Source: a bacterium
GTDB taxonomy: Bacteria > Bacillota_I > Bacilli_A > RFN20 > CAG-826
Assembly (NCBI GenBank): GCA_963638555.1
Contig: CAVHQU010000001.1
Span: 169,309 to 233,308 of the forward strand
Length of the DNA: 64,000 nt
Direction: 5' to 3'
Shown: in pieces, positions 3,282 through 63,330 of the stretch
Layout of the letters: each line of letters begins with the position of its first letter
How positions within the stretch are numbered: the stretch's first letter is position 1
The notes under the pieces: model-generated
Databases searched by the model: none
Seen by the model: the letters and a program-made list of their open reading frames with translations, nothing else
What the model was told of the DNA's origin: nothing
Position numbers and translations under genes: made by a program

Positions 3282-3893
3282 ATGAAAGACTTATCTAAAA
3301 CCGTATCAAAAAATTTATCATTGCTTAGAAAAGCTAGAGGGTTAACTCAAGGCCAGTTAGCTGAAAAATTTTCATATTCCGATAAATCGATATCAAAATG
3401 GGAGACGGGCGAAGGCCTGCCAGATATCAACATTCTTTCAGAATTAGCATCTTTCTATGGTGTTACGCTTGACTACCTAATTCAAGAGCATTCAGAAGAA
3501 ATGCTTGAACATGATGGGAAAGTCGACCCAAGAGATATTAGGAGAAACAAAATCATTGTTGTTGCCTTGTCCGTAGTCTTTGTTTGGACTATTGCAGCTG
3601 TAATATATTCCGCTTTAAGAATGGCGAAGATTGATACATGGTCCCCATGGTTGATATATATCTGGGCTGTTCCTGCATCGTTTATTGTTACGCTTTACTT
3701 TGGAAAGAAATGGGGGAGGAAAGAACACATCCTCATTGGCTTAATCTGCTTGTATTGGACATTTGCCTTTGCCTTGTATATAGAACTTGGCATGGATATT
3801 ACAATTGGGTGGAATTTATGGTTCATCGGTCTAATACCTATACCAGCAACCGTAGGAACAGTCTTCTTTGCTCTTTCAACATCTAAAGATTAA
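3282..3893 (+). CDS. XRE-family helix-turn-helix transcriptional regulator with C-terminal transmembrane segments
   Basis: N-term 'LRKARGLTQGQLAEKFSYSDKSISKWETGEGLPDINILSELASFYGVTLDYL' is a classic Cro/C1 HTH; 3-4 hydrophobic helices follow. Confidence 0.85.
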   Translation: MKDLSKTVSKNLSLLRKARGLTQGQLAEKFSYSDKSISKWETGEGLPDINILSELASFYGVTLDYLIQEHSEEMLEHDGKVDPRDIRRNKIIVVALSVVFVWTIAAVIYSALRMAKIDTWSPWLIYIWAVPASFIVTLYFGKKWGRKEHILIGLICLYWTFAFALYIELGMDITIGWNLWFIGLIPIPATVGTVFFALSTSKD

Positions 3894-3957
3894 TGCGCTA
3901 TCCTTGTATCTAGTGCATTATTTTTCTAAAATATCAAATAGTTTAGAGAGGTTGCTT

Positions 3958-4632
3958 ATGGATTCAATTCGTGTAATAAAGGTAAAACAAAGCGTATTTG
4001 CAAATAATAATGCAAGAGCCGCTGAAGTTAGAAAGAAGCTCAAAGAGAAAAATGTCTATCTTGTTAATTTAATGTCCTCTCCAGGAAGCGGAAAAACCAC
4101 ATTCTTGGTTGCCCTTATTAACAAATTGAAGAATGATCTTAGAATTGGCGTTATGGAAGCAGATATTGATGCTACAGTCGACGCAGAAACGATTTCAAAT
4201 AAGACAGGGGTCAAGTCAATTCAGATCCATACCTCAGGAGAATGTCATCTTGATGCTAAGATGGTCGATGACTCATTAGATGGATTTGGCGTTGATGATT
4301 TAGATTTGGTCTTCCTAGAAAACATTGGAAACCTTGTTTGTCCAGCTGAATTTGATACAGGGGCATCCTCTTCTTTCGAGTTGTTATCAATTCCTGAAGG
4401 CGATGATAAGCCTTTAAAATATCCACTTATGTTTACAGTGGCAAATGTTGTTATCTTTACTAAGATGGACGCAATCTCTGTTTTTGATTTTGATATTCAA
4501 AAAGCCGAAGAACGTATCCTTAAATTGAATCCAAACACTAAGTTCTTCCCCGTTTCTGCCAAAACTGGCCAAGGCATTGATGAATTGGCCGCTTATCTTC
4601 TTAAAGAAGTCAAAACTTATCAGGCAAAATAA
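3958..4632 (+). CDS. hypB: HypB-type G3E-family nickel-binding GTPase (hydrogenase/Ni-enzyme maturation factor-like)
   Basis: P-loop 'NLMSSPGSGKTTFL', 'SGECHLDA' (Cys-His) and 'ENIGNLVCPAEFD' (Cys) Ni-site motifs as in HypB; start moved to ATG 3958 (RBS agagagg) rather than the 3868 ORF-track start. Confidence 0.8.
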   Translation: MDSIRVIKVKQSVFANNNARAAEVRKKLKEKNVYLVNLMSSPGSGKTTFLVALINKLKNDLRIGVMEADIDATVDAETISNKTGVKSIQIHTSGECHLDAKMVDDSLDGFGVDDLDLVFLENIGNLVCPAEFDTGASSSFELLSIPEGDDKPLKYPLMFTVANVVIFTKMDAISVFDFDIQKAEERILKLNPNTKFFPVSAKTGQGIDELAAYLLKEVKTYQAK

Positions 4633-4674
4633 CTACACACAAAAACTATATTTTCAATATATCTATGGATACGT

Positions 4675-5448
4675 TTGGAGGCAAGCATGAACGCAGGTAA
4701 AAAAGCAGTCATATTTGTCGTTTCCTATTTAGGCGTCACAATTGTCGGAGGTCTTGTAATTTTTGGGTTATTCTTTAAGGCAATAGTTAATGATGTTTAC
4801 TCCAATAGATACCAAGAAACTAACTTTTCTCCATATACAAAATGGGTAAATGCTGATTATTCAACGAGAATATACTGCATGAATTGCAAATACGGTGAAT
4901 ATGGCTATACAACAATTAATGGTCAAGAGGAATTTTTTTGCTGGACGACATGTACTGGTTACAACAATACTTGCAAAAACGATAATATGGTCTTTTATTT
5001 CCCTGAACGCGATGAATCCATAAGGATGGTTGAAACGGTAAACGCTTCAAAAAATGATGAACTAACTCTCAAGCCTTATAGAGTCGATACAATAATTTCA
5101 AATAATTGGTCAGAAAAATTTTCTAAAGCAGAGTTTAACAGTGAAGATATCGATATGCGTTATTCTTTTTTGACAAAAATATACAGTCCTGAGTTAGATC
5201 TTAAATTCAAAATAAACTACTCTGAAGAAAAAAATGATGGTGGTTATAAGATGCATGCATATTTCAACAACGAATTGATAGAAGCGGCTTTTACCGACAA
5301 AACTCATATAAAATTGACCATTAACGATTCTATTAGCGAAGGATCATGGTCATTTGCGAAAGAAAACTATTATTTAAAATTTACTAAAGATGAGTTATTT
5401 GGTAAAGAAGGTGAGACGCTCACGTTCAAAACCAAAGTTGAGTATTAA
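4675..5448 (+). CDS. Hypothetical membrane-anchored Cys-rich protein
   Basis: N-terminal TM helix; Cys-rich stretch CMNCKYGEYGYTTINGQEEFFCWTTCTGYNNTCKN; no family recognised. Confidence 0.5.
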   Translation: MEASMNAGKKAVIFVVSYLGVTIVGGLVIFGLFFKAIVNDVYSNRYQETNFSPYTKWVNADYSTRIYCMNCKYGEYGYTTINGQEEFFCWTTCTGYNNTCKNDNMVFYFPERDESIRMVETVNASKNDELTLKPYRVDTIISNNWSEKFSKAEFNSEDIDMRYSFLTKIYSPELDLKFKINYSEEKNDGGYKMHAYFNNELIEAAFTDKTHIKLTINDSISEGSWSFAKENYYLKFTKDELFGKEGETLTFKTKVEY

Positions 5449-5481
5449 AAATGGTTAGCGATTATGCTAACCATTTTCCTT

Positions 5482-7599
5482 TTATTTTTCTACGACTATT
5501 TGTCCATCTTTTACGTCAACTGTGAACTTGTTTTTCGTATCAATCTCACCTTTGATGATTGCAGTAGCAAGTACAGTCTCAATTTTGTCTTGGATGAATC
5601 TCTTGATTGGTCTAGCACCGAAATTTGGTGAATAGGATGAATCAAGGACATATTTTCTAAGATTGTCAGTAAATTCGACGGAGTAGAATTGATTTTCAAG
5701 TCTTTCCTTGAGTTCGTTCAACATTTTATCAACGATCTTTAGTTGGACATCCTTATTTAACGGATTGAAATATACTATCTCATCAATACGGTTAAGGAAT
5801 TCAGGCTTAAATGTATGATGGAGCAAATCTTCAACCTTCGAGTTCTCTCCGTTAAGGATATATTCGCTGCCCAAATTGGATGTCATGATAATGATTGTAT
5901 TCTTGAAATCAACTAAGTGGCCTTGAGAATCAGTTAAACGACCATCATCAAGTATTTGCAAGAGAAGATTGAATACTTCAGGGTCAGCTTTTTCAATCTC
6001 ATCAAAGAGAACGATTGAATATGGATTCCTACGCACCTTTTCAGTAAGCTGTCCTCCTTCTTCATAGCCAACATAGCCGGGAGCTGCACCAATTAAACGT
6101 GATACAGAATATTTTTCCATATATTCAGACATATCAATACGGATAATGTTGTTTTCGTTATCGAAAAGGGCTTCCGCCAATGCTTTCGCTACTTCAGTTT
6201 TACCAACACCGGTAGGGCCTAAGAACATGAAGGACCCGATAGGTCTATTAGGATTTTGAATACCAGCTCTTTGACGAAGAATAGCGTTAGATACTAATTG
6301 AATGGCATTGTCTTGTCCAATGACTCTCTTTTGAAGGGTTTCCTTTAAATCAAGGACCTTCTCTTTATCTCCTTTAGAAATTCTTGATACAGGTATGCCT
6401 GTTCTTTTTGCAACAATCTTTGCAATGGATTCAGAATCAACTATTTCATCAACAAGTCTTTCCGTATCGTTGGTAGATTCGGTTATCTCTTTGATGCGTT
6501 TCTCATATTCAGGAATTGTTTGATACTGAAGTTTTGAAGCCTTTTCGAAGTTCCCTTCTTGGAAATAGTTGGCAAGTTCTACTTTTGCTTCTTCTATCTT
6601 GTTTTTAAGATCTTTTGCTTCTTTGATTTGGGCTTTCTCTTTTTGCCATTCAGCAGTTAATTTACTAGATTTATCTTTGTATTCAGAAAGTTCTTTATCA
6701 AGCTCAACTAAACGTTTCTTTGAAGAATCGTCATTTTCTTTCGTAAGCGCTACACGTTCGACCTCTAATGAGCGAATCTTACGGTTTGTTTCATCAAGTT
6801 CAGTTGGCATTGATTCAATTTCAACCTTGATTCCTGCGCACGCTTCATCAATCAAATCGATTGCCTTATCTGGCAAGAAACGATTAGTGATGTATCTATT
6901 AGATAATGTCGCAGCAGAAATGAGTGCATTATCAGTGATTCTAACGCCATGGTACGACTCAAATCTCTCTTTTAAACCACGAAGAATCGTTATTGTGTCT
7001 TCAACTGTTGGCTCTTCGATCATTACAGTTTGGAAACGTCTTTCAAGAGCGCGGTCTTTTTCAATGTATTGTCTATATTCGTTTAATGTTGTCGCACCGA
7101 TGCAGTCTATTTCACCACGAGCAAGCATCGGTTTAAGCATATTTGAAGCATCCATTGCGCCATCTGTTCTGCCTGCGCCAACGATTAAGTGAATCTCATC
7201 AATGAAAAGGACTATCTTGCCATCTGATTGTTTGATTTTATTCAGGACAGCCTTCAAACGCTCCTCAAATTCACCACGATATTTAGCGCCCGCAATAAGA
7301 GCACCCATATCAAGTTCATATATTTCTTTGTCTTTTAATGTAGCAGGGACATCGTTTTTGACGATTCTTTCCGCAAGCCCTTCTACTATTGCTGTTTTGC
7401 CAACGCCTGGTTCGCCAAGCAAGATAACGTTGTTCTTTGTCTTTCTTGCTAATATTTGTATGACCTTGCGAATTTCTTCATCACGGCCAATAACTGGATC
7501 TATTTTCCCGTTTTTTACATCCGCATTAACGTTGCGGCCAAATTTATCAAGGATGTTTTCATCTTGGGAATAGTCTTCCATTCCATTCATTTCATTCAT
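5482..7599 (-). CDS. clpB: ATP-dependent chaperone ClpB (form lacking N-terminal domain)
   Basis: 705 aa; two AAA+ modules ([16 protein letters not shown]) separated by a long coiled-coil M-domain; begins directly at NBD1 as in Mollicutes ClpB; RBS aggagg. Confidence 0.95.
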
Positions 7600-18503: not shown

Positions 18504-20480
18504 TTATTCGGCTGTTACAACTTGTGAGAATTCCATCGTAGATGAATCGGAATCACATTCGAGAGTTAAGCCAAGTTTGTCTGCCTTTCCATCAACAAGG
18601 AACATGCTAACACGGCCTTCATCCCAGTTTTTCCAAGAAGAGGAAAAATCAGAGAATGAAATCTCATTTTCATCTAATTCCCATTTGAACGTATCCGTAT
18701 ATTCTTTACCAGAATCGGTGATAGTTTGAACTCTTTCACATGTACCATCAGCAGAGAACTTAAGCGTAACGGAATATCCCCAAATACTAGTATGTGTGAA
18801 TGTATGATTCACTAAGAAATTGGTAAAATTGGTTTGTGAATTGATGACATAGAATTTCTTTTCGACTTTTACTGTTGGGTCAGCTGCTGAAGCCAAAGTA
18901 ATTGTTACCAATCCTTGTTTTTTTGTCGTGATTGTTAATTCTCCGCTAGAGGAAACCTCAACTGTAAGTCTATCTTCATTCGATGAAGTCGCAGTTATTG
19001 GTTCGTTGATTGTGCTTGATGGTTCAGTAGCGTAACGCCATGTATATGTTTTTCCAGAAAGTAAACTTGTTGATCTGTTTCCGATATCAGATGTTGAGCT
19101 AAAGGAAATTGAGGCGATTTGCGCTTTAGTAACGGTGACGCCACTAACAGTGATGCTTGTTAAGTAATAAGCGCCTGTCGTTTCTCTCTTGGCGTAATAT
19201 TCATACGTTAAATCAGCCGTACCCGCGCCAACGATTTCGAAATTGCCTTGATCATCAACTTTAATAACATCTTCGTTTGATGACGCTGAAGCGGTTAATT
19301 GAGTATAAACAGTATTAGCTGGTTCATATTTGTTTGCATAGCCGTAAATTGTTGAATATGAGCTTGAAACGGTTAAGTCTTCAACATCATGGACTTTCCA
19401 ATATGAGTCTTTGGCAGTTAATTTAACCGATGAAACATTCGTAAGGAAATAATCATTTGGATTGATAACATCATCACCAAATCCATCGGTCTTTGTTCCG
19501 TAGGTGATTGTGCCAGACTCTTTTAATGAAGAAAAAGCAGTATCCGTTGGATCGTCGTCCATAGAATATGTGACCTTATTTAAACAATCATACGAAATCA
19601 ATCTTGTCTTAGTGGAATTCATCGTATATTCCGCTTTAAGCTGAGTCGTAACAGTTTGACCGCTTTCAGTGTAAGAATATGTAACATCGATATTGTAATA
19701 GATATCGCCATTTTCTAAGGTAACTGGTGTTACTTTAGTCTTTCCTGTCTGAGCAACATACATATTTTCGACGATATTGCTGCCAATAAAGTTATATAAA
19801 TTGCCAGTTAAGTTTGCAGCTGCATTCGCTTGGAAATCAGATGAAAGAATATATTGAGAGGAGGATAATCCTGCAGCAGTTGCTTCTGCATCAGTATCCA
19901 CTATAAATAGTTTTGAAGCAGAATCTTGATATGCTTGTGGATTCTTGCTTGGATTGCTGTAGTCGGTAACTTTAACGAACATCTCAAATTCGTTTGTTTT
20001 AGAAGAGTCAGTTTCATCTTCATAAGCATCAGTTACTTTTGTTGCGACAGTTTTAAAAGTATCGCTTGTCTCTAATTTTCCATCAACAAGACGTTTGTAG
20101 GTTCCTGTTGAGGAAGATGATCCATCTAAGTAGTTTGTGTATACTTGTTCAGTCGTATTAACAATTGATGTGCTGGAATCAACATTCTTATAAGTAACAC
20201 TTGCGGCATTATTTAATTCTTCTTTTTGAAGTTTGGCGATTTCAGCTAAAGCATCTTCAAATGAAATGGAGTTATCATCGATTGAAGACGATGAAGATTC
20301 GCTACTTGATGAAGACTCAGAAGAGATTTCAGATTCACTTGAAGAGGATTTCTCGCTCGTTGAAGAACTCTCACTTGTGCTATTCTCGGAAGAATTTGCA
20401 TCGACGGACGAATTTGCAGTTCCACATCCAGCAAGTAATATTGCTAATGAGAGTACGCCAATTAATTTAGTTTTTTTCAT
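18504..20480 (-). CDS. Large Ser-rich surface lipoprotein
   Basis: Signal/lipobox 'LAILLAGCGT'; long poly-Ser/Glu linker; 658 aa. Confidence 0.8.
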   Translation of the reverse strand: MKKTKLIGVLSLAILLAGCGTANSSVDANSSENSTSESSSTSEKSSSSESEISSESSSSSESSSSSIDDNSISFEDALAEIAKLQKEELNNAASVTYKNVDSSTSIVNTTEQVYTNYLDGSSSSTGTYKRLVDGKLETSDTFKTVATKVTDAYEDETDSSKTNEFEMFVKVTDYSNPSKNPQAYQDSASKLFIVDTDAEATAAGLSSSQYILSSDFQANAAANLTGNLYNFIGSNIVENMYVAQTGKTKVTPVTLENGDIYYNIDVTYSYTESGQTVTTQLKAEYTMNSTKTRLISYDCLNKVTYSMDDDPTDTAFSSLKESGTITYGTKTDGFGDDVINPNDYFLTNVSSVKLTAKDSYWKVHDVEDLTVSSSYSTIYGYANKYEPANTVYTQLTASASSNEDVIKVDDQGNFEIVGAGTADLTYEYYAKRETTGAYYLTSITVSGVTVTKAQIASISFSSTSDIGNRSTSLLSGKTYTWRYATEPSSTINEPITATSSNEDRLTVEVSSSGELTITTKKQGLVTITLASAADPTVKVEKKFYVINSQTNFTNFLVNHTFTHTSIWGYSVTLKFSADGTCERVQTITDSGKEYTDTFKWELDENEISFSDFSSSWKNWDEGRVSMFLVDGKADKLGLTLECDSDSSTMEFSQVVTAE

Positions 20481-22303: not shown

Positions 22304-22334
22304 AAAAGAACGGATGCGTGTGTCCGTTCTTTTT
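22304..22334. terminator. Bidirectional terminator (aagaacgga-tgcgtgtg-tccgttctt-TTTT)
   Basis: 9-bp perfect stem between convergent genes. Confidence 0.7.
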
Positions 22335-23599
22335 TATTTTTCAGCATCTGTTCCTGATAAGAAATCAGTTATAGCGTCATCGAAATTGATAACGATATGG
22401 ACAGTTTTTCCATATCTATTATCGATAAATTTAGATAAATCGTTTTTTATTTGTTTTCGTTCCTTCTCATTATCCATCTCATCAGGGAGGATCATGTCAA
22501 AAATAAGATTGACGTTTTTCTCTCCCGAAACAATCCTGAAGTCATGGAAATGTATATCTTTGTTTGTTTTTGAAATGAATTCTTCGACAAGTTTCTTGTA
22601 TTTTTCAGTATCGGGATCATCAATCATTATCGGATCCATATGAACAGTGAGATGGATATGTAGCAATGAATAGGTTTCTTTTTCTAATAAATCGCACAGT
22701 TCATGAGAAATCATAACATCGTTTTTTGCATCTACTTCAACGTGTATGACACCAAAAATAACTTGTCCATAAGTATGAAGCTCCAAATCATGAACGCCTA
22801 AAACACCATTATGTTTCAAAAGGAGATTTACCAAAGACTTGATCAATTCTTCAGACGGCTTTTCTCCAACAAGAGAATTTGCCGCCTCTTTGATGATTCC
22901 TATGCCAGAAACAATAACTAAAACAGCAACGAACAAGGTGAAGAAACAATCAACATCATATTTAGTAAAGTATGAAATAAGAATTCCAATGATTACTAGG
23001 GAAGTAGATATGCAATCATTAAGAGCATCTTTACCTAACGCCTTCAATTGTTGAGAATTAATTCTCTTTCCGTAAGAAAAATATATCGAGGATTGGGTTA
23101 TCTTAACTAAAATAGCTAAAGAAAGTAAGCATAAGGAGACAACATACATCGTATAAGAGAATTCTCTAATTGATGGGGTACCCGTATTAATTATTGATTG
23201 AATAAAGGTTATTAAATCTCTTGCTCCTTGGTATGCCATTACGGCACCTAAGGCGATGATTACACAGCCAATAATCAAAGAAATAATGTATTCGGTTCTT
23301 TGATGGCCATATGGGTGTTCTTTATCGGCAGGCTTAAAGGTCATTTTCACGCCAAATACACTTAAAGCGTTATTCCCAAAATCAGAAAGGTTATTAACGG
23401 AATCAGATATCAATGAGTATAGTCCTAAAATGATACCCATGATAATTTTAGAAATGAAAAGCAAAAAATTAGTTATTAATCCAAAAAAAGATGCGACAAG
23501 CCCGTGCTTCTTTTGAACCACTGGATCTTTAACGTTTTTGTAGTCTTTAACAAATAATTTAAGTAATAGCTTTCCCATACACATGGATTGTAAGGCCAA
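22334..23599 (-). CDS. Cation diffusion facilitator (CDF) family metal efflux transporter
   Basis: CDF motifs 'SDSVNNLSD', 'HPYGHQRTE', cytoplasmic C-terminal domain 'HVEVDAKNDV'; alternative start 23578. Confidence 0.85.
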   Translation of the reverse strand: MALQSMCMGKLLLKLFVKDYKNVKDPVVQKKHGLVASFFGLITNFLLFISKIIMGIILGLYSLISDSVNNLSDFGNNALSVFGVKMTFKPADKEHPYGHQRTEYIISLIIGCVIIALGAVMAYQGARDLITFIQSIINTGTPSIREFSYTMYVVSLCLLSLAILVKITQSSIYFSYGKRINSQQLKALGKDALNDCISTSLVIIGILISYFTKYDVDCFFTLFVAVLVIVSGIGIIKEAANSLVGEKPSEELIKSLVNLLLKHNGVLGVHDLELHTYGQVIFGVIHVEVDAKNDVMISHELCDLLEKETYSLLHIHLTVHMDPIMIDDPDTEKYKKLVEEFISKTNKDIHFHDFRIVSGEKNVNLIFDMILPDEMDNEKERKQIKNDLSKFIDNRYGKTVHIVINFDDAITDFLSGTDAEK

Positions 23600-27090: not shown

Positions 27091-30012
27091 ATGAAATTCA
27101 GAAAATTTAGAGGAGGTGCGGCAATTGGTGTTTGTGTTCTTTCATTGAGCACATTCGCTTCAATTCTTGCCTTTGAGAACTCTGGGCAAGTCGATATTGC
27201 CTTAGGCATCACAGGTGAGAAAAACACCAAACAAAGTGCATACTCTTCATTAGAAGAAATGCATGTCGCTGAAAAGGCAAATGAAATCCAAACGGAAGAA
27301 GAAGGTTCTGTCCTTTTCTACAATGAAAATAATGCTCTTCCATTATCTAATGCAAAGAAAGTTACTTTACTTGGCAGAACGGCTGCCGACAATATCTTCA
27401 AAGGCGGATCAGGCGGATCAACTACCACAGATGAAACTGCCACTTCCCTTTATGAAGCGTTAACTGCTCAAGGATATTCAATCAACGAAACAGTTTATAA
27501 TGCCTTAAAAGAATCACCAATCAAACGTGCTAGAGGCGATATTGGCGAAGTTCCTGCATCCTTCTACACGGATGATATGAAAAACTCTTTCAAAGAATAC
27601 GGTGATGCGGCCATCATCGTCTTGGGGAGATACTCTGGCGAGCAACAAGACTTGTGCGCTGGAGGTGACTCAGGTCAAGATAATGCGGTTGATGCCAATG
27701 GCGATCCTGTGGATTCTTCAGGTATTCGTATGCTCGCTCTTCATGATGAAGAAAGAGACATGATCAAGATGGCGGTTGAATCAAAAGCATTCTCCAAAGT
27801 CGTTGTCTTGCTTAACACTGTTAACCCAATGGAAATTGGTGAACTCAAAGGATTAGGCGTTGATGCATGTTTATGGGTTGGGATTCCTGGCTATACTGGT
27901 TTTGAAGGGGTTGCAAACATCCTTTCAGGAAAGGCAGATCCTTCAGGTCGTTTAGCTGATACATATGCTACTAACTCCTTAAGTGCGCCTGCAATGAGAA
28001 ACTATGGTTCATTTAACTGGGATAACATCACAGCTTCAGGTCAAAATAAGTACTTGGTTTATGCAGAAGATATTTATATTGGTTATAAATATTACGAAAC
28101 ACGTTACAACGATCAAATATTAGGTATCAACAATGCCACTTCAAGCAAAGGTTGCTATGCTTCCTCTTCTTCTTGGGATTATGCAGCCGAAATGGATTAC
28201 ACATTTGGCTATGGTACATCTTATGCTTCATTCACTCAAAAACTTGATTCATTAAAATGGGACAAGGACGCTCATACTGTCACCGCAAAAGTCACAGTTA
28301 AGAATGAAGGTTCAACTTCTTATACTGGCAAATCTAAGAATACTGTCGAATTATACGCTTCCCTTCCTTATGAAAAAGGCCAAGCGGCTAAATCAGCCAT
28401 TCAATTGATTGGCTATGGCAAAACAAAAGAGTTGGCTAAAGGTGAGGAAGATACAGTCACAATCACTGTTGATGATTATCTATTTGCAACATACGACCAA
28501 AACGCAACAAACGGAGCCGACACAACAAAGAAAGGCTGCTACACATTTGATGCAGGTGAATATTTCTTCGCTATTGGTGCTGATGCTCATGACGCATTAA
28601 ACAATGTTCTAGCTAAAAAAGGCAAAACAGGTCTCTTCGATGCAGATGGTAAATCTGTTTCAGGTGACGTCTCAAAGGTTGCAACTGATACTTTGGCTCA
28701 ATTGGATAACGTTACCCATGCAAAATCTCATGAGAATGAAAATGTTGTTGTTTCCAACCAGTTTGATGATATGGACATCAACTATTTCGAAGATAACGCA
28801 GTCACATATCTAACAAGAGATGATTGGAATACCTATCCAGTTCGTTATACAGGTTTATCTGCGACAGATGATATGAAAACTATCATCGATGGTCATACAT
28901 ATTCAAAACCAGCTGACGCACCAGACATCTCCGAATTCAAATATTCTCAAAAATATGATGAGACCATGATGCTAGCTGAACTCGTCAATGAGCCATATGA
29001 TTCCGATAAATGGGATACGTATATTGATCAATTAACGCCTTCTCAACTTGCCGCAATCACTGGCGAAAAGTTTGGCAACACAGGCTTAACTGACTATGGT
29101 TGCCCAGACAACTCTGCAGCCGATGGCCCAGATGGTATTCAAGCAAACACTGGCTTCTCTCATGTATGCGAAAACCTTGCAGCTTCAACATATAATGATG
29201 AATTATTGAAGAAACGTGGTGAATTCATGGCTGAAGACGGCATGTATTCAGGTCAAAACGGTGTTTATGGATTTGGTGCAAACATGCATAGAACCGTATA
29301 TGCCGGAAGAAACTTTGAATACTATTCCGAAGATATGATTCTTTCTTACCTTGCTGGCGCAGCCCAAACAAAAGCGGCCCAAGATAAAGGATTAACAACA
29401 TACGTTAAGCATTTCTGCGCTAACGACCAAGAAGTTTGGAGAAACGGTTCTTCAACAATCATGCGCGAACAAGCATATCGTCAAGGACCACTCAAAGGTT
29501 TTGAAGGCTCCTTCACCAAAGGAGAATCTCTTGGAACGATGACCTCTAACGCCCGTGTTGGCTTTAGAACAGTTTCTATGGACTATGGCACTATGACAAC
29601 TGTTCTTAGAAACGAATGGGGATTTAAAGGAACGGCCATGACCGACTCCTCTAAAGGTTCAACTCATTATCTCTATACAAAGGAATCAGTTGCAGCTGGT
29701 ATCGATCAATTTAACAACGACGAAACCAGAGGAACAACAGACATGAAAAACTATCTCATCAAGGAAAAAGATGGTTATCTTTGGAAGAGGGCAAGGGAGA
29801 TAGCCCATCACTACTTCTACACAATCTCTAGAAACTTCTGTATGTCTGGTTTATCAAAAGACACAGTTGTCGAATCAAAGACATCTTGGTGGAAAACAGC
29901 ATTAATCGCTTTAATAAGCGTTGAAGCAGTTATCACAGTCGGCTTAGCTGGCACAGCTGCCGTTGGGGGAATCCTCTCCTACAGCAAAAAAAGAAAGGAA
30001 GGTAACGAATAA
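27091..30012 (+). CDS. Glycoside hydrolase family 3 protein, domain-permuted, with N-terminal signal and C-terminal TM anchor
   Basis: GH3 catalytic-domain motif 'VKHFCANDQEVWRNG' in the C-terminal half; GH3 alpha/beta sandwich and Fn3-like domains precede it; terminal hydrophobic helix + KKRK. Confidence 0.8.
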   Translation: MKFRKFRGGAAIGVCVLSLSTFASILAFENSGQVDIALGITGEKNTKQSAYSSLEEMHVAEKANEIQTEEEGSVLFYNENNALPLSNAKKVTLLGRTAADNIFKGGSGGSTTTDETATSLYEALTAQGYSINETVYNALKESPIKRARGDIGEVPASFYTDDMKNSFKEYGDAAIIVLGRYSGEQQDLCAGGDSGQDNAVDANGDPVDSSGIRMLALHDEERDMIKMAVESKAFSKVVVLLNTVNPMEIGELKGLGVDACLWVGIPGYTGFEGVANILSGKADPSGRLADTYATNSLSAPAMRNYGSFNWDNITASGQNKYLVYAEDIYIGYKYYETRYNDQILGINNATSSKGCYASSSSWDYAAEMDYTFGYGTSYASFTQKLDSLKWDKDAHTVTAKVTVKNEGSTSYTGKSKNTVELYASLPYEKGQAAKSAIQLIGYGKTKELAKGEEDTVTITVDDYLFATYDQNATNGADTTKKGCYTFDAGEYFFAIGADAHDALNNVLAKKGKTGLFDADGKSVSGDVSKVATDTLAQLDNVTHAKSHENENVVVSNQFDDMDINYFEDNAVTYLTRDDWNTYPVRYTGLSATDDMKTIIDGHTYSKPADAPDISEFKYSQKYDETMMLAELVNEPYDSDKWDTYIDQLTPSQLAAITGEKFGNTGLTDYGCPDNSAADGPDGIQANTGFSHVCENLAASTYNDELLKKRGEFMAEDGMYSGQNGVYGFGANMHRTVYAGRNFEYYSEDMILSYLAGAAQTKAAQDKGLTTYVKHFCANDQEVWRNGSSTIMREQAYRQGPLKGFEGSFTKGESLGTMTSNARVGFRTVSMDYGTMTTVLRNEWGFKGTAMTDSSKGSTHYLYTKESVAAGIDQFNNDETRGTTDMKNYLIKEKDGYLWKRAREIAHHYFYTISRNFCMSGLSKDTVVESKTSWWKTALIALISVEAVITVGLAGTAAVGGILSYSKKRKEGNE

Positions 30013-32518: not shown

Positions 32519-34108
32519 ATGTGCCAAAAATTATCGCACCTTCTTCTATTTATCTCTACAATCGTCTCCGTTTCTAATTTTGGCGTATCAAGAAGTCAAA
32601 AGTCTACTAACGAAAAAACGTTTTTTTCTAGGAAACTTATTCGTTCAACCAAGAAATCAGAAAAGAATGAGGATTCCTATTTTGATTATAAATTTGATGG
32701 AGCAAACGAATACCGGGAATCTAATGGCGATGAATTTGAAAAAGTTGATTGTATAAACGGCTCAAATTCATCAATAAAAATTCAAAATGAACCGGGCCGA
32801 GAAACTGTATTGAAAGCAGTTACTGAGCCAAATAGTGAAAGCACAAAAACGATTTCATATAACGATATCAAAGAGAATAATGATACTTTTTTAACTGCAA
32901 CCAATATGTATTCAGTTGGTTCATATAAGGACGGAATCACAAAAATGTGGTCTTGGCGTTATGCGACCATAAATCAAAAAACGGAGGGACCGCTTTGGTG
33001 GAAGAAAACATACATTGATAAAGATTTTTATTCGTTCGATGTAGCTTGCAGCGGAACGTTAAATATTTCTTTAACTGAGATTCCATCGAATTGTGACTAT
33101 GACATGCGTTTATATAGATTAGAAGATGAAATAAACGCAAACGCCGCTACATTAAATTTTGATAACTATGAAGGGTGCAGCCGAAATTCAAAAGGCCAGG
33201 ATGAATATATCTCATACTCTGTTGTGCCTGGAACATATTATATTTGTGTTTATTCATATAACGATCAAACTTATGATAATGACAATCCGTATAAAATTAC
33301 GTTTGAAGAAATATCTAATTCCGGAACAAGCGAAACTTCTTACTATATAGATGTCGGGAGAGTTGAAAACGACATAGGAGCTATATGGATAAGTGATTAC
33401 TCTCCTTTCGGTTTATCGCCGATGACTTTAACGGACACCCAAGCAAGGAAAAAATTCACAAACTATGATTGTTACCCATATATACAACATTTAGCGAACA
33501 ATTATGAAGATTGTAGCATCAATTTCGCAGTTCTTTACCTCTGGAATTTGCAAGCGCGTGCTTATATATATGCTTGGGCACAAAACATATTGAACTCATT
33601 ATACAATTACAATAATTGGGCAAATGATTCTGTAAGTTCTTTTGGGGTCCATTTAAACGATGCTTCAATGGCAGTAACAGTTGGTGGGACAATCATAAAC
33701 ACAATAAGCGAAGCCACAATCGCAGAAACTGCAAAAGCCGCTTTAAACTCATTAGGCTTTTTATCCAGTCTCGCTGGATCTGTGATATCTCTAATTTCTT
33801 TTGTGAACTCATTTTCTTTGGAGAATGAGTTTCAAATCAGCAGAAAGAATTTGATTCAATATTTGGTTAATATCAAGGCGGCCTTTGAAATAGGAACCGG
33901 CAGTAACGAAGATCAAACGATAATGCTTAAATTCAGATATCACTTCAGTGAAAAACAATATATTGATTGGTCACCAAGGTACGAATTAGGCGAAGCAAAT
34001 ATGCATAATGAAGATTACGTTTCACTTCAAATTCCAGGTAGTGGGATAAAAGGAACGGCACATGGAATACACTCAACAACCGATTTAGAAAAATATTTAA
34101 GGAGTTAA
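32519..34108 (+). CDS. Secreted protein with PPC-like (pre-peptidase C-terminal-type) beta-sandwich domain and C-terminal hydrophobic hairpin; module 1
   Basis: Signal peptide; 'DKDFYSFDV...GTLNISL...CDYDMRLY...PGTYYICVYSYNDQ...NPYKITFEE' fits the PPC pattern D.D.Y.F/D.DL.LY/G.YY.V.Y; ~50-aa Gly/Ala/Ser-rich hydrophobic segment near C-terminus; paralog of 34605..36176. Confidence 0.7.
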   Translation: MCQKLSHLLLFISTIVSVSNFGVSRSQKSTNEKTFFSRKLIRSTKKSEKNEDSYFDYKFDGANEYRESNGDEFEKVDCINGSNSSIKIQNEPGRETVLKAVTEPNSESTKTISYNDIKENNDTFLTATNMYSVGSYKDGITKMWSWRYATINQKTEGPLWWKKTYIDKDFYSFDVACSGTLNISLTEIPSNCDYDMRLYRLEDEINANAATLNFDNYEGCSRNSKGQDEYISYSVVPGTYYICVYSYNDQTYDNDNPYKITFEEISNSGTSETSYYIDVGRVENDIGAIWISDYSPFGLSPMTLTDTQARKKFTNYDCYPYIQHLANNYEDCSINFAVLYLWNLQARAYIYAWAQNILNSLYNYNNWANDSVSSFGVHLNDASMAVTVGGTIINTISEATIAETAKAALNSLGFLSSLAGSVISLISFVNSFSLENEFQISRKNLIQYLVNIKAAFEIGTGSNEDQTIMLKFRYHFSEKQYIDWSPRYELGEANMHNEDYVSLQIPGSGIKGTAHGIHSTTDLEKYLRS

Positions 34109-34110
34109 TC

Positions 34111-34608
34111 ATGATAGAAAAAAATTACATAATCAGCAAATCTCAGCATTTTAAATGGAAATTCAGAAGTGCTTGGCCATTTTATTTAGTGATGGTTTCA
34201 TCCTTTTTGGCAGCATTTTCTTCTTTTGTTGCTATCGGCTGTAAAATCAATTTAAATCAAATGGACAATTCTTATTTCTTTTTATACATAATCTTCTTAG
34301 TTTGTCTTCCTTTAGGACTATTAACGTTACGTTTAATCATTAATTTTTCAAATAAAATTCTTTTCGAAGATGTCAAAGTAGAAATAGACCCATTCACCAA
34401 AACAATAACCGTCACTAGTAAGGATGACAGGGGCAATGTACTAACGACCATAAATAAAATTGCATATAAAAAGGAAAAGAAAAAATATTTCATATTGGGC
34501 AGAGAATGGGGGCGTTTCTTTTACGTCCCGAAAGCCGGAATGAAGAAAGACGACATTAAAACAATCAGAGCAATAAAACCATTGAAAGTTGAGAAATATC
34601 ATCAATGA
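34111..34608 (+). CDS. Small 2-TM membrane protein with cytoplasmic beta-rich (bacterial PH-like?) domain; module 1 partner
   Basis: 'KWKFRSAWPFYLVMVSS...' two TM helices then ~90 aa soluble domain; paralog of 36179..36661; overlaps next gene (ATGA). Confidence 0.65.
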   Translation: MIEKNYIISKSQHFKWKFRSAWPFYLVMVSSFLAAFSSFVAIGCKINLNQMDNSYFFLYIIFLVCLPLGLLTLRLIINFSNKILFEDVKVEIDPFTKTITVTSKDDRGNVLTTINKIAYKKEKKKYFILGREWGRFFYVPKAGMKKDDIKTIRAIKPLKVEKYHQ

Positions 34609-36176
34609 GAAATCACAAAATCACAAAAAACATATCTTTAGCTTTTTTATTCATTTTATCATCATTGACGCCCTCAGCAAGAAGTCAAAACCTATCATTC
34701 TTTAGTGGGCAAAAAATAAGCAAAAGATTAGAACTCCAAGCATCTAAAAAGGATGATTCAAATTTTGATTATGAATTTGATACTTCTTCCTCTTTCTCAA
34801 ACAATGGGTCCGACGAATTCGAATCTATGGGATTAAACGATGGAAAACGGTCAGGAGAAAAAATAGAAAATAATAACGGGGAAATTTATGTCACAAAAAA
34901 TGAAAACAATGTTACTAAAAGTGATATTTCTACAGCAACTTATAACGATAGCTGCGAAAACAATGACTCTTTTTTAACCGCTTCAAGTGCTTATGCCGTT
35001 GGCACGAACGATGGTGGAATATATAAACATTGGGTTTGGTGCTATGCAACAATTAGTCAAAAAACTGAAGGCATGCTTTGGTGGAAACAGACCTATATAG
35101 ACAAGGATTTCTATTCTTTTGATGTAGTTTCGGTTGGAACTTTAAAGGTTACTTTAAGTGATATTCCTACTAATTGTGATTATGATCTACGTTTATATAA
35201 AATTGAAGACAAATTAGAATGCTCATATGCCAGTTGTAACTTTGATGATCCGATTGCCTCAAGTGCAAATGCATCGAATACGGATGAGAATGTTTCGATT
35301 TCGGTTAAACCTGGAACATATTACGCTTGTGTCTATTCTTACAAAGACCAAACTTTTGATAACAACAACCCATATAAATTGACATTTGAAGAGGATGTAG
35401 ATGACACAAGGTATGGTTCATATTATTCTATAAATAATGGAAGAAATGATGGAGATTTAGGTGCAGTATGGCGCAGCGACTACAAACCGTTAGGAATTAC
35501 TCCAGTAAACATATCAGAAGAAAACGCCCAAGTAGGTCTTGCAAATTCATCCACTTATCCGTACATAAAGCATTTGATTGATAAATATTCTTCTGACGAA
35601 AAAATTACATACGCCATAGTTTATGTATGGGATGTTGAACTAAGAGCGTTGATACGATCTGCATTACAATTGATATTAGAAGAAATCTACGAAAGAGAGG
35701 AAACATATTTCAATGCATTTAATATAAGTTGGAATGCGGCAAATTTATTTATTTCAATAGGCGGCCTTATTGTAAGCACTATATCTTTGGCTAATATAGC
35801 AACATCGGCTTTATTAACTGGTGCAATAACCGCAACTTCACTTTCGATGGGTTTTATTTCAACAATTTTATCATTTGCTATAGGTTATCAATTCCAAATA
35901 GAAAGACAAGAATTGATAAATTATTTAATAAATGCAATAAGCGCCTTTGAAGTTGGAAAAGGAAGCAATAATAAAGAAGTCGTAATGTTAAAGTTCAAAT
36001 ATAGGTTCATTAAAAAAGAACGTTGGTATTTAGATTGGACTCCATCTTATGATGTAGATGGTCAAAATAGATATAACGAAGATCAAATTACTCATCAATT
36101 GAAAGGAAGTCCAATAAACGGAAGGATAATAGGTTTTCAAGACGAACACACTCTATACAACTTATTAGGATTTTAG
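34605..36176 (+). CDS. Secreted PPC-like-domain protein with C-terminal hydrophobic hairpin; module 2
   Basis: ~40% identical over full length to 32519..34108 (…WWKQTYIDKDFYSFDV…NCDYDLRLY…PGTYYACVYSYKDQTFDNNNPYKLTFEE…). Confidence 0.7.
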   Translation: MRNHKITKNISLAFLFILSSLTPSARSQNLSFFSGQKISKRLELQASKKDDSNFDYEFDTSSSFSNNGSDEFESMGLNDGKRSGEKIENNNGEIYVTKNENNVTKSDISTATYNDSCENNDSFLTASSAYAVGTNDGGIYKHWVWCYATISQKTEGMLWWKQTYIDKDFYSFDVVSVGTLKVTLSDIPTNCDYDLRLYKIEDKLECSYASCNFDDPIASSANASNTDENVSISVKPGTYYACVYSYKDQTFDNNNPYKLTFEEDVDDTRYGSYYSINNGRNDGDLGAVWRSDYKPLGITPVNISEENAQVGLANSSTYPYIKHLIDKYSSDEKITYAIVYVWDVELRALIRSALQLILEEIYEREETYFNAFNISWNAANLFISIGGLIVSTISLANIATSALLTGAITATSLSMGFISTILSFAIGYQFQIERQELINYLINAISAFEVGKGSNNKEVVMLKFKYRFIKKERWYLDWTPSYDVDGQNRYNEDQITHQLKGSPINGRIIGFQDEHTLYNLLGF

Positions 36177-36178
36177 CT

Positions 36179-36661
36179 ATGGAAAATTTAGTAATGGTTT
36201 TAAATGTTAGTGGTTTAAGGAAATGGAAATTTCAATCAGGATGGGGCTACCTAATACCAGCAATTATAGTCATCCCATTTTCAATTTTTATTGCCGTTGA
36301 ACTCATTTTAAGCGTAAATGGTAATATCGAAAGACTTCAAACTGCAAACATATATACATATTGGTACTTCATATCATTATTGTTATTACCATCGTCAATA
36401 ATGCCATATAAGCATTACTCCAAGGAAATGTATGGTAAACAGTTAAAATTGAAAGTTTCATTCGACGAAAAAGTTGTAACCGGGACATTCATGGCAAAAA
36501 ATGGAGATACTCGTTCTAACAAAATAGAAATTGAATATGTAAAAGAATATGTCAAATATTTTAAGATTGGAAGAAGTTTCTACAACTTCTATTTCCTTCC
36601 AAAAAGCAAATTATCTAAAGAGCAATTAGAAGCAATTAGAAGCTTAAAAAAGCCTAATTAG
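36179..36661 (+). CDS. Small 2-TM membrane protein; module 2 partner
   Basis: 'RKWKFQSGWGYLIPAIIV...' same architecture as 34111..34608 incl. C-terminal 'YFKIGRSFYNFYFLPK' vs 'YFILGREWGRFFYVPK'. Confidence 0.65.
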   Translation: MENLVMVLNVSGLRKWKFQSGWGYLIPAIIVIPFSIFIAVELILSVNGNIERLQTANIYTYWYFISLLLLPSSIMPYKHYSKEMYGKQLKLKVSFDEKVVTGTFMAKNGDTRSNKIEIEYVKEYVKYFKIGRSFYNFYFLPKSKLSKEQLEAIRSLKKPN

Positions 36662-43072: not shown

Positions 43073-43102
43073 TATATCTCTTCGGAAAGAAGACTATATT
43101 AA

Positions 43103-54473: not shown

Positions 54474-55280
54474 TTATCTTCCTCCTGCTAAGCCTTTTTG
54501 ACGGGCATATTCAGCAGCACCTAAAGCGCCCATTAATTGAGGATCGATAGGGAGGTTGACAACCTTTAAGTGTAAAACCTTTTCAATCGCGTCTTTTAAG
54601 CCATCGTTTTTAGCACAGCCACCAGTTAAGGTAATGTTATCAACTGCTCCAGCTTTCTTTGCCATGACGAAGCATCTTTTTGCAACTGAGAATTCAATGC
54701 CTGCAGCAATTTCGTCCATTGGTTTTCCTTCACCAACTAATGAGATAACTTCGGATTCAGCAAAAACCGTGCATTGAGCAGTGATAGGAATAATATTCTT
54801 TGCTTTCAAAGAAAGTTTTGAGAAAGTGTCTAAATCCATCTCGAAGGCTCTAGACATCGCTTCAAAGAATCTTCCTGTGCCAGCAGCGCATTTATCATTC
54901 ATAGCGAAATTAAGGACTGTTCCATCCGTATCAACGGCAATGCCTTTAACGTCTTGCCCACCAATATCAATAATTGCTTTGACGTTTGGATCAGTAACGT
55001 GGACACCCATCGCGTGGCAGGAAATCTCAGAAATATTTTCATCCGCAAAAGGAACTTTGTTTCTGCCATATCCTGTGCCAACCAAGTAAGATAAGTCTTT
55101 AGGGGAATTTAATCCTTCGACTTGAACAATTGCTTGATCTAAAGCATCTTGAGCGCTTAAAACGGAATTAATTCTGCTTCTTAAGGTAACATTTGCTACC
55201 ATCTTACCAGTTTCGTCGACAATAACGCATTTTGTATAGGTACTGCCGGAATCACAACCACCAAAATATTTCATATTCAT
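54474..55280 (-). CDS. 2-hydroxyacyl-CoA dehydratase activator (HgdC/BadF/BadG/BcrA/BcrD ATPase family)
   Basis: ASKHA fold 'YFGGCDSGSTYTKCVIVD'; cluster-ligand motif 'NDKCAAGTGRFFE' as in HgdC; ~268 aa. Confidence 0.85.
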   Translation of the reverse strand: MNMKYFGGCDSGSTYTKCVIVDETGKMVANVTLRSRINSVLSAQDALDQAIVQVEGLNSPKDLSYLVGTGYGRNKVPFADENISEISCHAMGVHVTDPNVKAIIDIGGQDVKGIAVDTDGTVLNFAMNDKCAAGTGRFFEAMSRAFEMDLDTFSKLSLKAKNIIPITAQCTVFAESEVISLVGEGKPMDEIAAGIEFSVAKRCFVMAKKAGAVDNITLTGGCAKNDGLKDAIEKVLHLKVVNLPIDPQLMGALGAAEYARQKGLAGGR

Positions 55281-58036: not shown

Positions 58037-58804
58037 TTATAATATTCCTAATTTTTCTAATGCAATTTTTGTGTTCTTAACGATATTTGAATCTTCGTTA
58101 AGAGAGAATACTGAATTGCCCTCAACATCCGAGAGCATCATTTCTTTGTCATCTGGAATTACGCTCAATAAGTTTAACGATTCGAGATTAAGTTTATTGA
58201 TATCTACTGTTTCGCTAACACGATTAAGAATCAATCCATCAGTTTCGTACATGACTAATTCTTTAGCAACCTTCTTTATCGTTTTTGTTACTTCAATGCC
58301 TTTCTTAGACGCATCGGAAACAAGAACTAGATGGGTGACCTTCTCCATTACTCTGCGATTAACTTGCTCAATACCCGCTTCACCATCAATAACCACATAA
58401 TCAAAATTATTGGCAAGAAGGCTTATTACTTCTTTGAGATAAGCGTTAACCTTGCAATAACATCCACTCGCTTCAGGACGACCTATAGCGAGGAAGGAGA
58501 TATTGTCTATTTCAACTAAAGCATCAAAGATTTGGTATTTTGCTTCGGAGAGAATTTCCAGAGCTGCTTTTGAGTCTCCATTCTCCGCATGTTCAATGAA
58601 TAACTTTCTTATATCATCTACCGTTGAAGATGAATTAACGCCTAACGCTGTCGCTAATCCAATGGCAGGATCAGCATCAATGGCTAAAATTTTCTTATCT
58701 GGATATTTTTCATGGAGCAATCTAACAGACAAGGCAGAAATTGAAGTCTTACCGACTCCACCTTTTCCACAAAAGGCTAATATAACTGGCTTACTCATAA
58801 TCAT
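58037..58804 (-). CDS. CooC/AcsF-type MinD-superfamily ATPase with CxC metal-binding motif
   Basis: Deviant Walker A 'FCGKGGVGKTS'; 'AIDADP'; 'GRPEASGCYCKVN' CxC motif characteristic of CooC-type nickel-insertion ATPases. Confidence 0.7.
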   Translation of the reverse strand: MIMSKPVILAFCGKGGVGKTSISALSVRLLHEKYPDKKILAIDADPAIGLATALGVNSSSTVDDIRKLFIEHAENGDSKAALEILSEAKYQIFDALVEIDNISFLAIGRPEASGCYCKVNAYLKEVISLLANNFDYVVIDGEAGIEQVNRRVMEKVTHLVLVSDASKKGIEVTKTIKKVAKELVMYETDGLILNRVSETVDINKLNLESLNLLSVIPDDKEMMLSDVEGNSVFSLNEDSNIVKNTKIALEKLGIL

Positions 58805-61962: not shown

Positions 61963-63330
61963 ATGAAAAAATCTAATCTTATTTTATTAACATTACTTAG
62001 CACCACATTATTCTCATGCGGAGGAAACGATTCGTTAGATTCCACTGAATCCTCGTCAGCACAAGATGAAATCGTTGATGTTCTTCCTGATGGATATACA
62101 AATTCCGTCAAGGATTATTTGAAGGCATTAAAGAGCATCCACAACTACACAATCTCTGAAACGGTTTCTTCCACTGCAGCTACGTATGAAAACTATATTG
62201 TCGCCAAATATGATACAAAATCCTACTACTATGATTTCGGTTCAAATTCCTATGGATATATTCAATCCGACGATGGCGTGTATGCAGTTAACATCAAAAA
62301 TGACTCTTTAATTGGCGGAGAAATTTATCATGATGATGAAGGGAACGCTTATAAAGATTTATGGGGTCATGATTTCTTCAAAAGCTTTGCTTCATTAGAT
62401 GAGGAACAATTAGAAACAATTCCCGATGGAACAGTTGACGTATCTCTCAAAGGAAAGAAAAACAAACTAGCAATTCTTTCTATATTAGGGCTTGATTCGT
62501 CTTATTATGCAGGCATCGCATCAATGAAAGCGTCAATAAGTTCCAGCAACGCTTTAGGAATTAGCATCGAGATTGAAGATTCATCTGGTGCCACAATCAC
62601 AGTCGATTCAGTCGTATATGCTTTATTAACCACCAAAAACACGGAAATAGATGAATTCCTTGCCAATGGTGGAACATATTACGTTATCGACTCAGATTTC
62701 GCAAAAGCAAGAACTCTTATGAAGGGTAATAACTATACGCATAACTATTACTACAATAAGAAAATCGTTGGTGTTGAATATTTCAACGAGAACTACTACT
62801 TCGTCAACTGGGATTCATCCTATGTTGCTGAAACAGGCCAAATATTAGTTAATCAAGGCCTTATTGGCATCGATCATAAAAAAGATAGCAATGGCAATGC
62901 CTTAAATGGCGCATATCTTGTCACATTGAATAATGGTCAATTTAGCATAAGCCTCTCTTTCTATTACAATGAAGATCCAAACATTCCTACCGTATATCAT
63001 TACCCATCACTTATGTATATGTGGGACAATCCTGAATTCTTTGAAATGGATGAAACCCCATCAGATTTAGACGCATACTTCACAACCGATGACACCATCA
63101 TGATGAATAACTTCATTGAAAACTTCTCAATGTCTAGTCAAGTTGCTGACGTTAATGTCAGATCTCTCTCCATTGGTTGGAAAGATATTGAAGATGATTC
63201 AAACACCTCAAGAATTGTTCGTTTCTGCCTCTCGACAAGTGGAGGAGACGTCACTTATGATTTCTGCAATTTTGGAACGACAAATATCCCTGCATTCGAT
63301 TCGTTCTTAGCAGGTTTATCAGACCAATAA
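61963..63330 (+). CDS. Lipoprotein
   Basis: Lipobox 'TLFSCGG'; 455 aa. Confidence 0.8.
   Translation: MKKSNLILLTLLSTTLFSCGGNDSLDSTESSSAQDEIVDVLPDGYTNSVKDYLKALKSIHNYTISETVSSTAATYENYIVAKYDTKSYYYDFGSNSYGYIQSDDGVYAVNIKNDSLIGGEIYHDDEGNAYKDLWGHDFFKSFASLDEEQLETIPDGTVDVSLKGKKNKLAILSILGLDSSYYAGIASMKASISSSNALGISIEIEDSSGATITVDSVVYALLTTKNTEIDEFLANGGTYYVIDSDFAKARTLMKGNNYTHNYYYNKKIVGVEYFNENYYFVNWDSSYVAETGQILVNQGLIGIDHKKDSNGNALNGAYLVTLNNGQFSISLSFYYNEDPNIPTVYHYPSLMYMWDNPEFFEMDETPSDLDAYFTTDDTIMMNNFIENFSMSSQVADVNVRSLSIGWKDIEDDSNTSRIVRFCLSTSGGDVTYDFCNFGTTNIPAFDSFLAGLSDQ

Follow-up and report, generated by a model that had tools for sequence, protein, structure and literature searches.

HypB GTPases annotated as "hydrogenase accessory" proteins are common among gut Firmicutes, Bacteroidales and Bacilli with small genomes, and the loci examined lack a [NiFe]-hydrogenase context. 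The sole published explanation for such HypBs is their co-occurrence with the uncharacterised IsrA family. Among 988 IsrA homologues surveyed by Kronen et al. (2023), HypA is encoded within five genes in 73% of the cases, HypB in 56% and a DUF5692 protein in 40% (PMC10134865). In Acetobacterium wieringae ISORED-2, which carries an IsrA cluster and no [NiFe] hydrogenase, IsrA was proposed as the nickel target; this organism has two hypA genes (PMC10134865). We analysed a hypB gene of a CAG-826 bacterium of the Bacilli_A, found in a stretch of 64,000 nucleotides of contig CAVHQU010000001.1 (assembly GCA_963638555.1), hereafter called the window. The hypA gene that follows hypB in related species has been deleted in this lineage, and hypB itself has remained under strong purifying selection. 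The window also carries, 49 kb away from hypB, an operon of cooT, cooC and HGD-D reductase-like genes, whose relatives are physically linked to HypB, HypA and IsrA-like genes. Our favoured reading, to which we give about an even chance, is that a functional HypB, having lost hypA, still feeds nickel to a cooC-HGD/IsrA reductase system.

The open reading frame (ORF) finder placed hypB at 3868-4632 on the forward strand, opening at a TTG. The ATG at 3958 is the likely start: it has a GAGAGG Shine-Dalgarno motif 7 nucleotides (nt) upstream, and about 100 database homologues have exactly the resulting length of 224 amino acids (aa). The protein matches the Pfam family PF02492 (cobW/HypB/UreG, E = 4e-16) and, over its full length, the NCBIfam hypB equivalog TIGR00073, for which it scores 234.4 bits (E = 1e-69; cutoff 121.2). 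The UreG and MeaB models reach only 29.7 and 17.8 bits, both far under their cutoffs.

The HypB-type G-domain with an intact Cys-His...Cys metal site, claimed in a preliminary description of this DNA, is confirmed by this score and by the alignments below. All three strings quoted there are in place, namely SPGSGKT (41-47, with GSGKT at 43-47), GECHLDA (93-99) and NLVCPA, the latter within ENIGNLVCPA (120-129); they are followed by EGDDK (146-150) and TKMD (167-170, the G4 motif). Among proteins of solved structure, the closest are the HypBs of Helicobacter pylori (4LPS, E = 6e-46), Methanocaldococcus jannaschii (2HF8) and Archaeoglobus fulgidus (2WSM), whose Cys-His and Cys columns align with C95, H96 and C127. 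Residues G43, G45, K46, T47, C95, H96, N121, G123, N124, C127, P128 and K168 are kept in 79 of 79 aligned HypBs, and D170 in 78. The protein has neither an N-terminal CxxCGC site nor a His-rich stretch, and is thus of the short, H. pylori-like form. Altogether, the above-cutoff TIGR00073 match, the GTPase motifs (P-loop, G3 and G4) and the Cys-His...Cys site identify it, at the level of sequence, as a genuine HypB-type Ni GTPase and not a chance match. Ni(II) binding and GTP hydrolysis are predicted from the family and its motifs, and nickel is probably the metal handled.

To place the protein among its relatives, we scanned one genome per GTDB species, retained the 80 closest HypB loci (designated, like all loci below, by L numbers) and clustered their neighbours within 10 kb. 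A protein of ~925 aa is encoded next to hypB at 58 of these loci, hypA at 48, a DUF5692 membrane protein at 30 and a GntR regulator at 19. The ~925-aa protein, which combines Fer4, Fer4_20 and Pyr_redox_2 domains with an unannotated Cys-rich N-terminal part of ~330 aa, is an Fe-S flavoprotein of the IsrA ("putative isoprene reductase") family, and the neighbour counts agree with those published for IsrA (PMC10134865). In a neighbour-joining tree, built without bootstrap, the window HypB groups with the HypBs encoded beside IsrA-family genes. It falls in a Bacilli sub-branch whose sister group comprises all the other IsrA-linked HypBs; the H. pylori and archaeal proteins branch outside. This sub-branch contains one HypB linked to both IsrA and HypA (L006) and three orphan HypBs with a different conserved context (L004, L005 and L008).

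The window itself contains no IsrA-like, hypA or DUF5692 gene, as searched for by regular expressions, tblastn and profile hidden Markov models with filters off, and there is no IsrA-like gene within 10 kb of hypB in six close relatives. A Pfam scan covered the window ORFs of at least 110 aa that are not nested in larger ones, together with the small ORFs at 58.8-59.2 kb. Several of these ORFs belong to no Pfam family, and none belongs to the hydrogenase, HypC-F, urease, carbon monoxide dehydrogenase/acetyl-CoA synthase (CODH/ACS), LarA or nik/cbi families. A canonical hyp operon, with hypA, hypCDEF and the large subunit of a [NiFe] hydrogenase, was thus not found in the 64 kb, and the absence of hyp, hydrogenase and urease neighbours reported earlier holds for the whole window. 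This absence is expected, because this HypB branch normally accompanies IsrA-type Fe-S flavoproteins; the window HypB belongs, as an ordinary representative, to a non-hydrogenase branch that is already known.

The TIGR00073 model is labelled as a hydrogenase HypB equivalog, and relatives are annotated as 'hydrogenase nickel incorporation protein HypB'. These labels would suit an ordinary maturation factor, whose hyp and hydrogenase genes, or ure genes, lie outside the window. We find this quite improbable. Hydrogenase, HypC-F and urease are not among the 25 most frequent Pfam families near the loci without an adjacent Fe-S flavoprotein, rare single occurrences being possible; this count took 19 of the 22 such loci, with L002, L003 and L012 left out, and the rest of the 80 loci are mostly IsrA-type clusters. 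In addition, sister species have hypBA alone with no hypCDEF nearby, and A. wieringae, with the same cluster type, has no [NiFe] hydrogenase (PMC10134865).

The two closest of the 80 species-level loci, L002 and L003, encode HypBs 86-88% identical to that of the window, and all three share the gene order FeADH / 527-aa gene / XRE / hypB ... clpB / AAA_33 / ROK / glf. In L002 and L003 a gene for a 114-aa HypA (PF01155, 94 bits) starts 2 nt past hypB. The hypA gene is also found on four contigs whose HypBs are 91-92% identical (L083-L086), and is missing wherever HypB is 98-100% identical, on four contigs in all (the window, L082, L168 and L169). Compared with its hypA-bearing relatives, the window loses DNA similarity at the stop codon of hypB (4631-4645) and regains it at ~5457-5507, the 3' end of clpB. 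No remnant of hypA is detectable between hypB and clpB.

The gap is occupied in the hypA-less strains by an ORF of 253/257 aa, with or without a second one of 526 aa; in the hypA-bearing strains the cargo includes DUF4143/AAA_14 ATPases, an SLFN-like helicase and ABC exporters, and a MarR regulator is also among the genes seen in this interval. Since the cargo differs between strains, the hypB-clpB interval must be a variable island, whose turnover took hypA away. The hypervariable interval between hypB, or hypBA, and clpB spans 4633-5480 in the window, 10676-13400 in L082, 11023-16950 in L083 and 11022-14530 in L003. The gene was first described as stand-alone. No hypA or other hyp gene besides hypB was indeed found in the window, but with relatives keeping hypA 2 nt downstream the state is a derived one: it results from a lineage-specific deletion of hypA and does not represent an ancestral orphan. 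A search for HypAs of the genus type returned only 12 proteins; 7 of them pair indirectly with HypBs that are 84-93% identical, and none with window-type HypBs. This pairing is only suggestive of a lineage without a relocated hypA.

We then measured selection on hypB as the ratio of non-synonymous to synonymous divergence (dN/dS). As dS between the window and L002 or L003 is saturated, the closer L082 and L168 were used. The hypB genes of the window and L082, both hypA-less with the same deletion junction, differ by 46 nucleotides and 4 amino acids, giving a dN/dS of 0.021 at a dS of 0.36. For the same pair the ratio is comparable in clpB (0.007), ROK (0.014) and glf (0.012), and much higher in the replacement ORF (0.18). 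Despite the loss of hypA, hypB is under strong purifying selection. This makes it unlikely that hypB is a decaying relic, not yet pseudogenised after the loss of hypA and client. Such a relic would account for the lack of hypA and of an IsrA-like gene nearby, and for a locus that borders a variable island. It is, all the same, very improbable indeed, as the catalytic and metal-binding residues are also all intact and the ribosome-binding site is a good one.

The gene for an XRE-type protein lies directly upstream of hypB in all close relatives (dN/dS 0.07), and HypB G-domains bind Zn as well as Ni. Both points would suit a HypB that has shifted to Ni/Zn buffering, or to regulation together with the XRE-type protein, without any dedicated enzyme client. 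This is improbable in our view: it is without known precedent, and the hypA retained in sister species implies delivery to a client.

The second nickel-related locus of the window is the operon at 53.5-59.2 kb. The CooC- and CooT-like genes reported previously at 58 kb are both as described, CooT being a PF10133 protein. For the CooC-like ATPase, the best solved match is CooC1 (3KJE, E = 5e-15), with GKGGVGKT aligned and GCYCK facing QCYCR. It combines the MinD/ParA fold with a deviant Walker A motif and a CXC motif that is invariant in 50 unique orthologues. Clustering revealed no CODH/ACS partner for it, in the window or in 81 related loci. The genes downstream encode two HGD-D subunits, here named HGD1 and HGD2, and an activase. 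HGD1 scores 143 bits with NF040772, whose cutoff is 350, and is distantly similar to BzdN, to the double-cubane cluster protein (DCCP) and to HadC. Upstream of cooT, the 68-aa protein keeps E8, H19, H23 and E26 in 90% or more of 9 unique sequences. At this place it occurs in 16 of 81 loci, never without cooT, and it could act as a small metal-binding partner of a new kind, by analogy with CooJ. The earlier remark that a client enzyme is not obvious stands in so far as no classical Ni enzyme is found among the window ORFs scanned; the HGD-D/activase operon headed by cooT and cooC is nonetheless a candidate client.

The conservation of this operon was followed in 80 metagenomic relatives with HGD1s of 68-81% identity; counts out of 81 include the window. 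HGD2 is present in 69 loci, cooC in 68, the activase in 61 and p240, the last gene of the operon, in 56. In 41 of the 81 there is an IsrA-like gene no further than 6 kb from the HGD operon, with a product up to 81% identical to the HypB-adjacent IsrA-like proteins. Complete HypB-cooC-HGD1-HGD2-activase-p240-IsrA arrays occur in L116 and L129. The HypB-cooC layout of L133 is the same, its cooC being masked in the filter by an overlapping antisense ORF; the contigs of L130 and L145 show HypB-cooC-HGD1 and stop short of the genes that would follow. Other lineages show HypB-IsrA-HGD1-HGD2 (L138, L139 and L147), IsrA-HypA-cooC-HGD (L110 and L115) or HypB-IsrA-cooC-HGD1-HGD2-activase-p240 (L028). 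The slot directly upstream of cooC is filled, depending on the lineage, by the 68-aa protein and CooT (16 loci, the window among them), by HypB or by HypA. Among the IsrA-bearing HGD loci the closest to the window are L104 and L105 (HGD1 75% identical), with cooT-cooC-HGD...IsrA; no IsrA-like gene is found within 6 kb of the operon in L089, L091, L092 and L094, which are 81% identical.

The HypAB(+DUF5692), IsrA-like and cooC(T)-HGD1-HGD2-activase-p240 modules thus constitute a single neighbourhood network. The physical link of HypAB and IsrA-like genes to a cooC-led HGD operon is new here and has no description in the searchable literature, where we found nothing relevant on CooC or CooT with HGD-D or double-cubane proteins. 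Haft's preprint ties double-cubane proteins to selenium (SAO) loci and not to nickel.

Two further observations concern the IsrA-like proteins and the HypB loci. The best 120 matches listed for an IsrA-like query are all 76-91% identical and carry Oscillospiraceae, Erysipelotrichaceae, Lachnospiraceae and Clostridia labels; conservation this unusually high across such taxa may reflect horizontal transfer. In two Oscillospiraceae-type loci (L013, 5595-9860; L021, 5424-9689), a HypB of this branch directly follows two Fe_hyd_lg_C genes, [FeFe]-hydrogenase-like, that flank a 390-aa gene, and is not beside an IsrA-like gene.

According to the favoured reading, the short-form HypB would bind Ni(II) at the Cys-His...Cys site of its dimer interface and free the metal upon GTP hydrolysis. 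The adjacent hypA was deleted during turnover of the hypB-clpB island and hypB was retained by selection; its product would still supply nickel to the IsrA / cooC-HGD reductase system. The cooT-cooC-HGD1-HGD2-activase operon would be the only part of that system visible in the window, and the small CooT may take over the carrier role of HypA. The HypB client would accordingly be either the HGD1/HGD2 complex or an IsrA-like protein encoded outside the window. HGD1/HGD2 is the best visible candidate, because cooC adjoins HGD1 in 68 of the 81 loci, against 41 of 81 for IsrA. The replacement of HypA by CooT is our conjecture.

It is conceivable, although rather unlikely, that HypB, CooT and CooC all serve one unrecognised Ni-dependent, ATP-driven reductase made of double-cubane-like HGD-D subunits and coupled to IsrA in many other gut anaerobes. 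If so, the hypAB / cooC(T) / HGD1-HGD2-activase / IsrA supercluster would be a new class of nickel enzyme system, and the lineage without hypA and IsrA its minimal form.

Several points weigh against the favoured reading. Only 1 of the 80 HypB loci has a cooC-HGD operon within 10 kb, and about 11 of the 81 HGD1 loci carry HypB or HypA; as several of the latter are closely related, the independent linkages number about 4-5. The operon has chaperones of its own, so that its need for HypB may be doubted. In a prevalent sister taxon HGD1 occurs on ~500 contigs, and no close HypB reaches a similar abundance, a hint that the operon may occur in the absence of this HypB. To our knowledge, a nickel site has never been shown in an HGD-D protein, a double-cubane protein or IsrA, and it is from the adjacency of chaperones alone that the nickel dependence of the whole system would follow. 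Finally, the evidence spans the 64-kb window and partial flanks, and other parts of the genome could encode an IsrA homologue, another hypA or even a hydrogenase.

The first two of these define the main rival, which is possible but clearly the less probable explanation. HypB would here serve an IsrA-type Fe-S flavoprotein encoded elsewhere, probably with its own hypA; the hypA adjacent to hypB would be dispensable, and the 58-kb operon an electron-delivery partner or unrelated. Published IsrA homologues lie near HypA more often (73%) than near HypB (56%), which implies that an unlinked hypB is common, and A. wieringae sets an example with its two hypA genes (PMC10134865). The 58 IsrA-linked loci out of the 80 nearest, and the cooT-cooC-HGD...IsrA arrangement of L104 and L105, agree with it as well. 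On the other hand, the searches for IsrA-like genes were negative for the 64-kb window, for 10 kb around hypB in the six relatives and for 6 kb around the operon in L089, L091, L092 and L094, these being partial genomes. The 12 genus-type HypAs, none paired with window-type HypBs, also speak, indirectly, against a second hypA.

In sister strains, an Opp-type ABC transporter with fused or expanded ATPase subunits is encoded 4-10 kb upstream of hypB, at about 6-10 kb in L083 (1-3734) and L085 (1-3708). We rejected a nickel-specific Nik role for this transporter, as the JCVI-syn/Mycoplasma OppC/D/F models match it best. These matches would fit a Mollicutes-like small-genome Bacilli host; the sole support for the small genome mentioned in the preliminary description is an HGD1 of a sister taxon on a 1.67-Mb contig.

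Table 1 Coordinates of the features at the hypB locus and in the cooT-cooC-HGD operon of the window.
Feature	Position	Strand	Remarks
XRE-type HTH protein, 203 aa	3282..3893	+	PF01381; N-terminal HTH, hydrophobic C-terminal half; possible regulator
hypB, 224 aa	3958..4632	+	G-domain-only HypB; P-loop 41-47, Cys95-His96, Cys127, G3 120-125, G4 167-170
Family-less ORF	4675..5448	+	257 aa (TTG 4675) or 253 aa (ATG 4687, GGAGG ribosome-binding site); hydrophobic N-terminus
Hairpin, terminator-like site	5448..5477		Between the 257-aa ORF and convergent clpB; common to both
p240, family-less protein, 233 aa	53549..54250	−	Operon end; 56/81 loci; H202, C211, C214 and C220 invariant
Hydrophobic small protein, 72 aa	54253..54471	−	Conserved in the operon at 42/81 loci
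ATP-dependent activase	54474..55280	−	BcrAD_BadFG / CoA_E_activ
HGD2, divergent HGD-D subunit, 515 aa	55289..56836	−	N-terminal extension
HGD1, HGD-D subunit, 396 aa	56836..58026	−	Related to double-cubane, BzdN and HadC proteins; 10 invariant Cys
cooC-like, MinD/ParA-type ATPase	58037..58804	−	Deviant Walker A; CXC motif C115/C117
cooT, CooT-family, Ni-binding, 64 aa	58801..58995	−	PF10133, 50 bits; Cys2 invariant
His/Glu-rich protein, 68 aa	59006..59212	−	HNEHHNEE; no family; upstream of cooT

The flanks of hypB are as first described, an XRE regulator and an unrelated membrane protein; the transmembrane segments of both were judged by eye from the translations. The downstream ORF sits where sister species carry hypA, and belongs to the variable hypB-clpB island. 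The Fe-ADH gene at 257-1402, a syntenic upstream gene, was considered as a client and set aside as an ordinary group III alcohol dehydrogenase. The metal exporter at 22.3 kb, counted in the preliminary description as part of the metal-handling machinery, does belong to the CDF family (22334-23599), but it is a generic Cation_efflux/ZT_dimer protein with no evidence for nickel specificity and adds nothing to the nickel case.

Elsewhere in the window, a two-gene module is duplicated in tandem at 32519-36661 (+), with a 529-aa PPC-domain protein and a 165-aa protein followed by their counterparts of 523 and 160 aa. A 973-aa GH3 glycosidase at 27091-30012 (+) is permuted, with the Glyco_hydro_3_C and Fn3-like domains preceding the N-terminal Glyco_hydro_3 domain. 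Large ORFs of 744, 868, 658 and 455 aa (40838-45709 (+), 18504-20480 (−) and 61963-63330 (+)) match no Pfam family at E-value thresholds of 1e-4 to 1e-6.

The lineage of the window offers a natural experiment: selection on hypB has continued after the loss of hypA. It also points to a neighbourhood bridge between HypAB/IsrA clusters and a cooC(T)-led operon for a double-cubane-like reductase. Should nickel be inserted into one of these proteins, the gut of humans and animals would harbour a new and abundant nickel enzyme, which would also offer a handle on the substrates of double-cubane-type reductases.

The IsrA clusters, such as that of A. wieringae, are among the closest described systems. 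The HypB of strain ISORED-2 (VUZ27134.1, PMC10134865) has the same short form, with the CH...C site of the G-domain as its only metal site and neither CxxCGC nor a His-rich stretch, and the nearest relatives of the window HypB lie in similar hypB / IsrA-like / hypA / DUF5692 arrays. The window differs from the A. wieringae cluster in having no IsrA-like gene, hypA or DUF5692, hypA having been deleted in its lineage. H. pylori HypB (4LPS) shares the G-domain-only architecture and the aligned Cys-His/Cys ligands, and sets a precedent for a HypB with a non-hydrogenase client, urease. It acts with HypA, via UreE/UreG, for both hydrogenase and urease, whereas none of these partners is encoded in the window; its N-terminal extension of ~13-17 residues is also missing from the window HypB.

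With the CooC/CooT/CooJ proteins of [NiFe]-CODH, the window cooC-like product shares the deviant Walker A and the CXC Ni motif, and cooT the Ni-binding Cys2. In contrast to the CODH system, no cooS or acsA lies near cooC, and the genes downstream are those of two HGD-D subunits and an activase. HGD1 and HGD2 belong to the HGD-D superfamily together with DCCP/DCCP-R (6ENO), class I benzoyl-CoA reductase and the 2-hydroxyacyl-CoA dehydratases, and are likewise paired with a BcrAD-type activase. Unlike DCCP, the window pair looks heteromeric, its second subunit measuring 515 aa, and its operon is led by cooC, with or without cooT, hypB or hypA, often followed by an IsrA-like flavoprotein.

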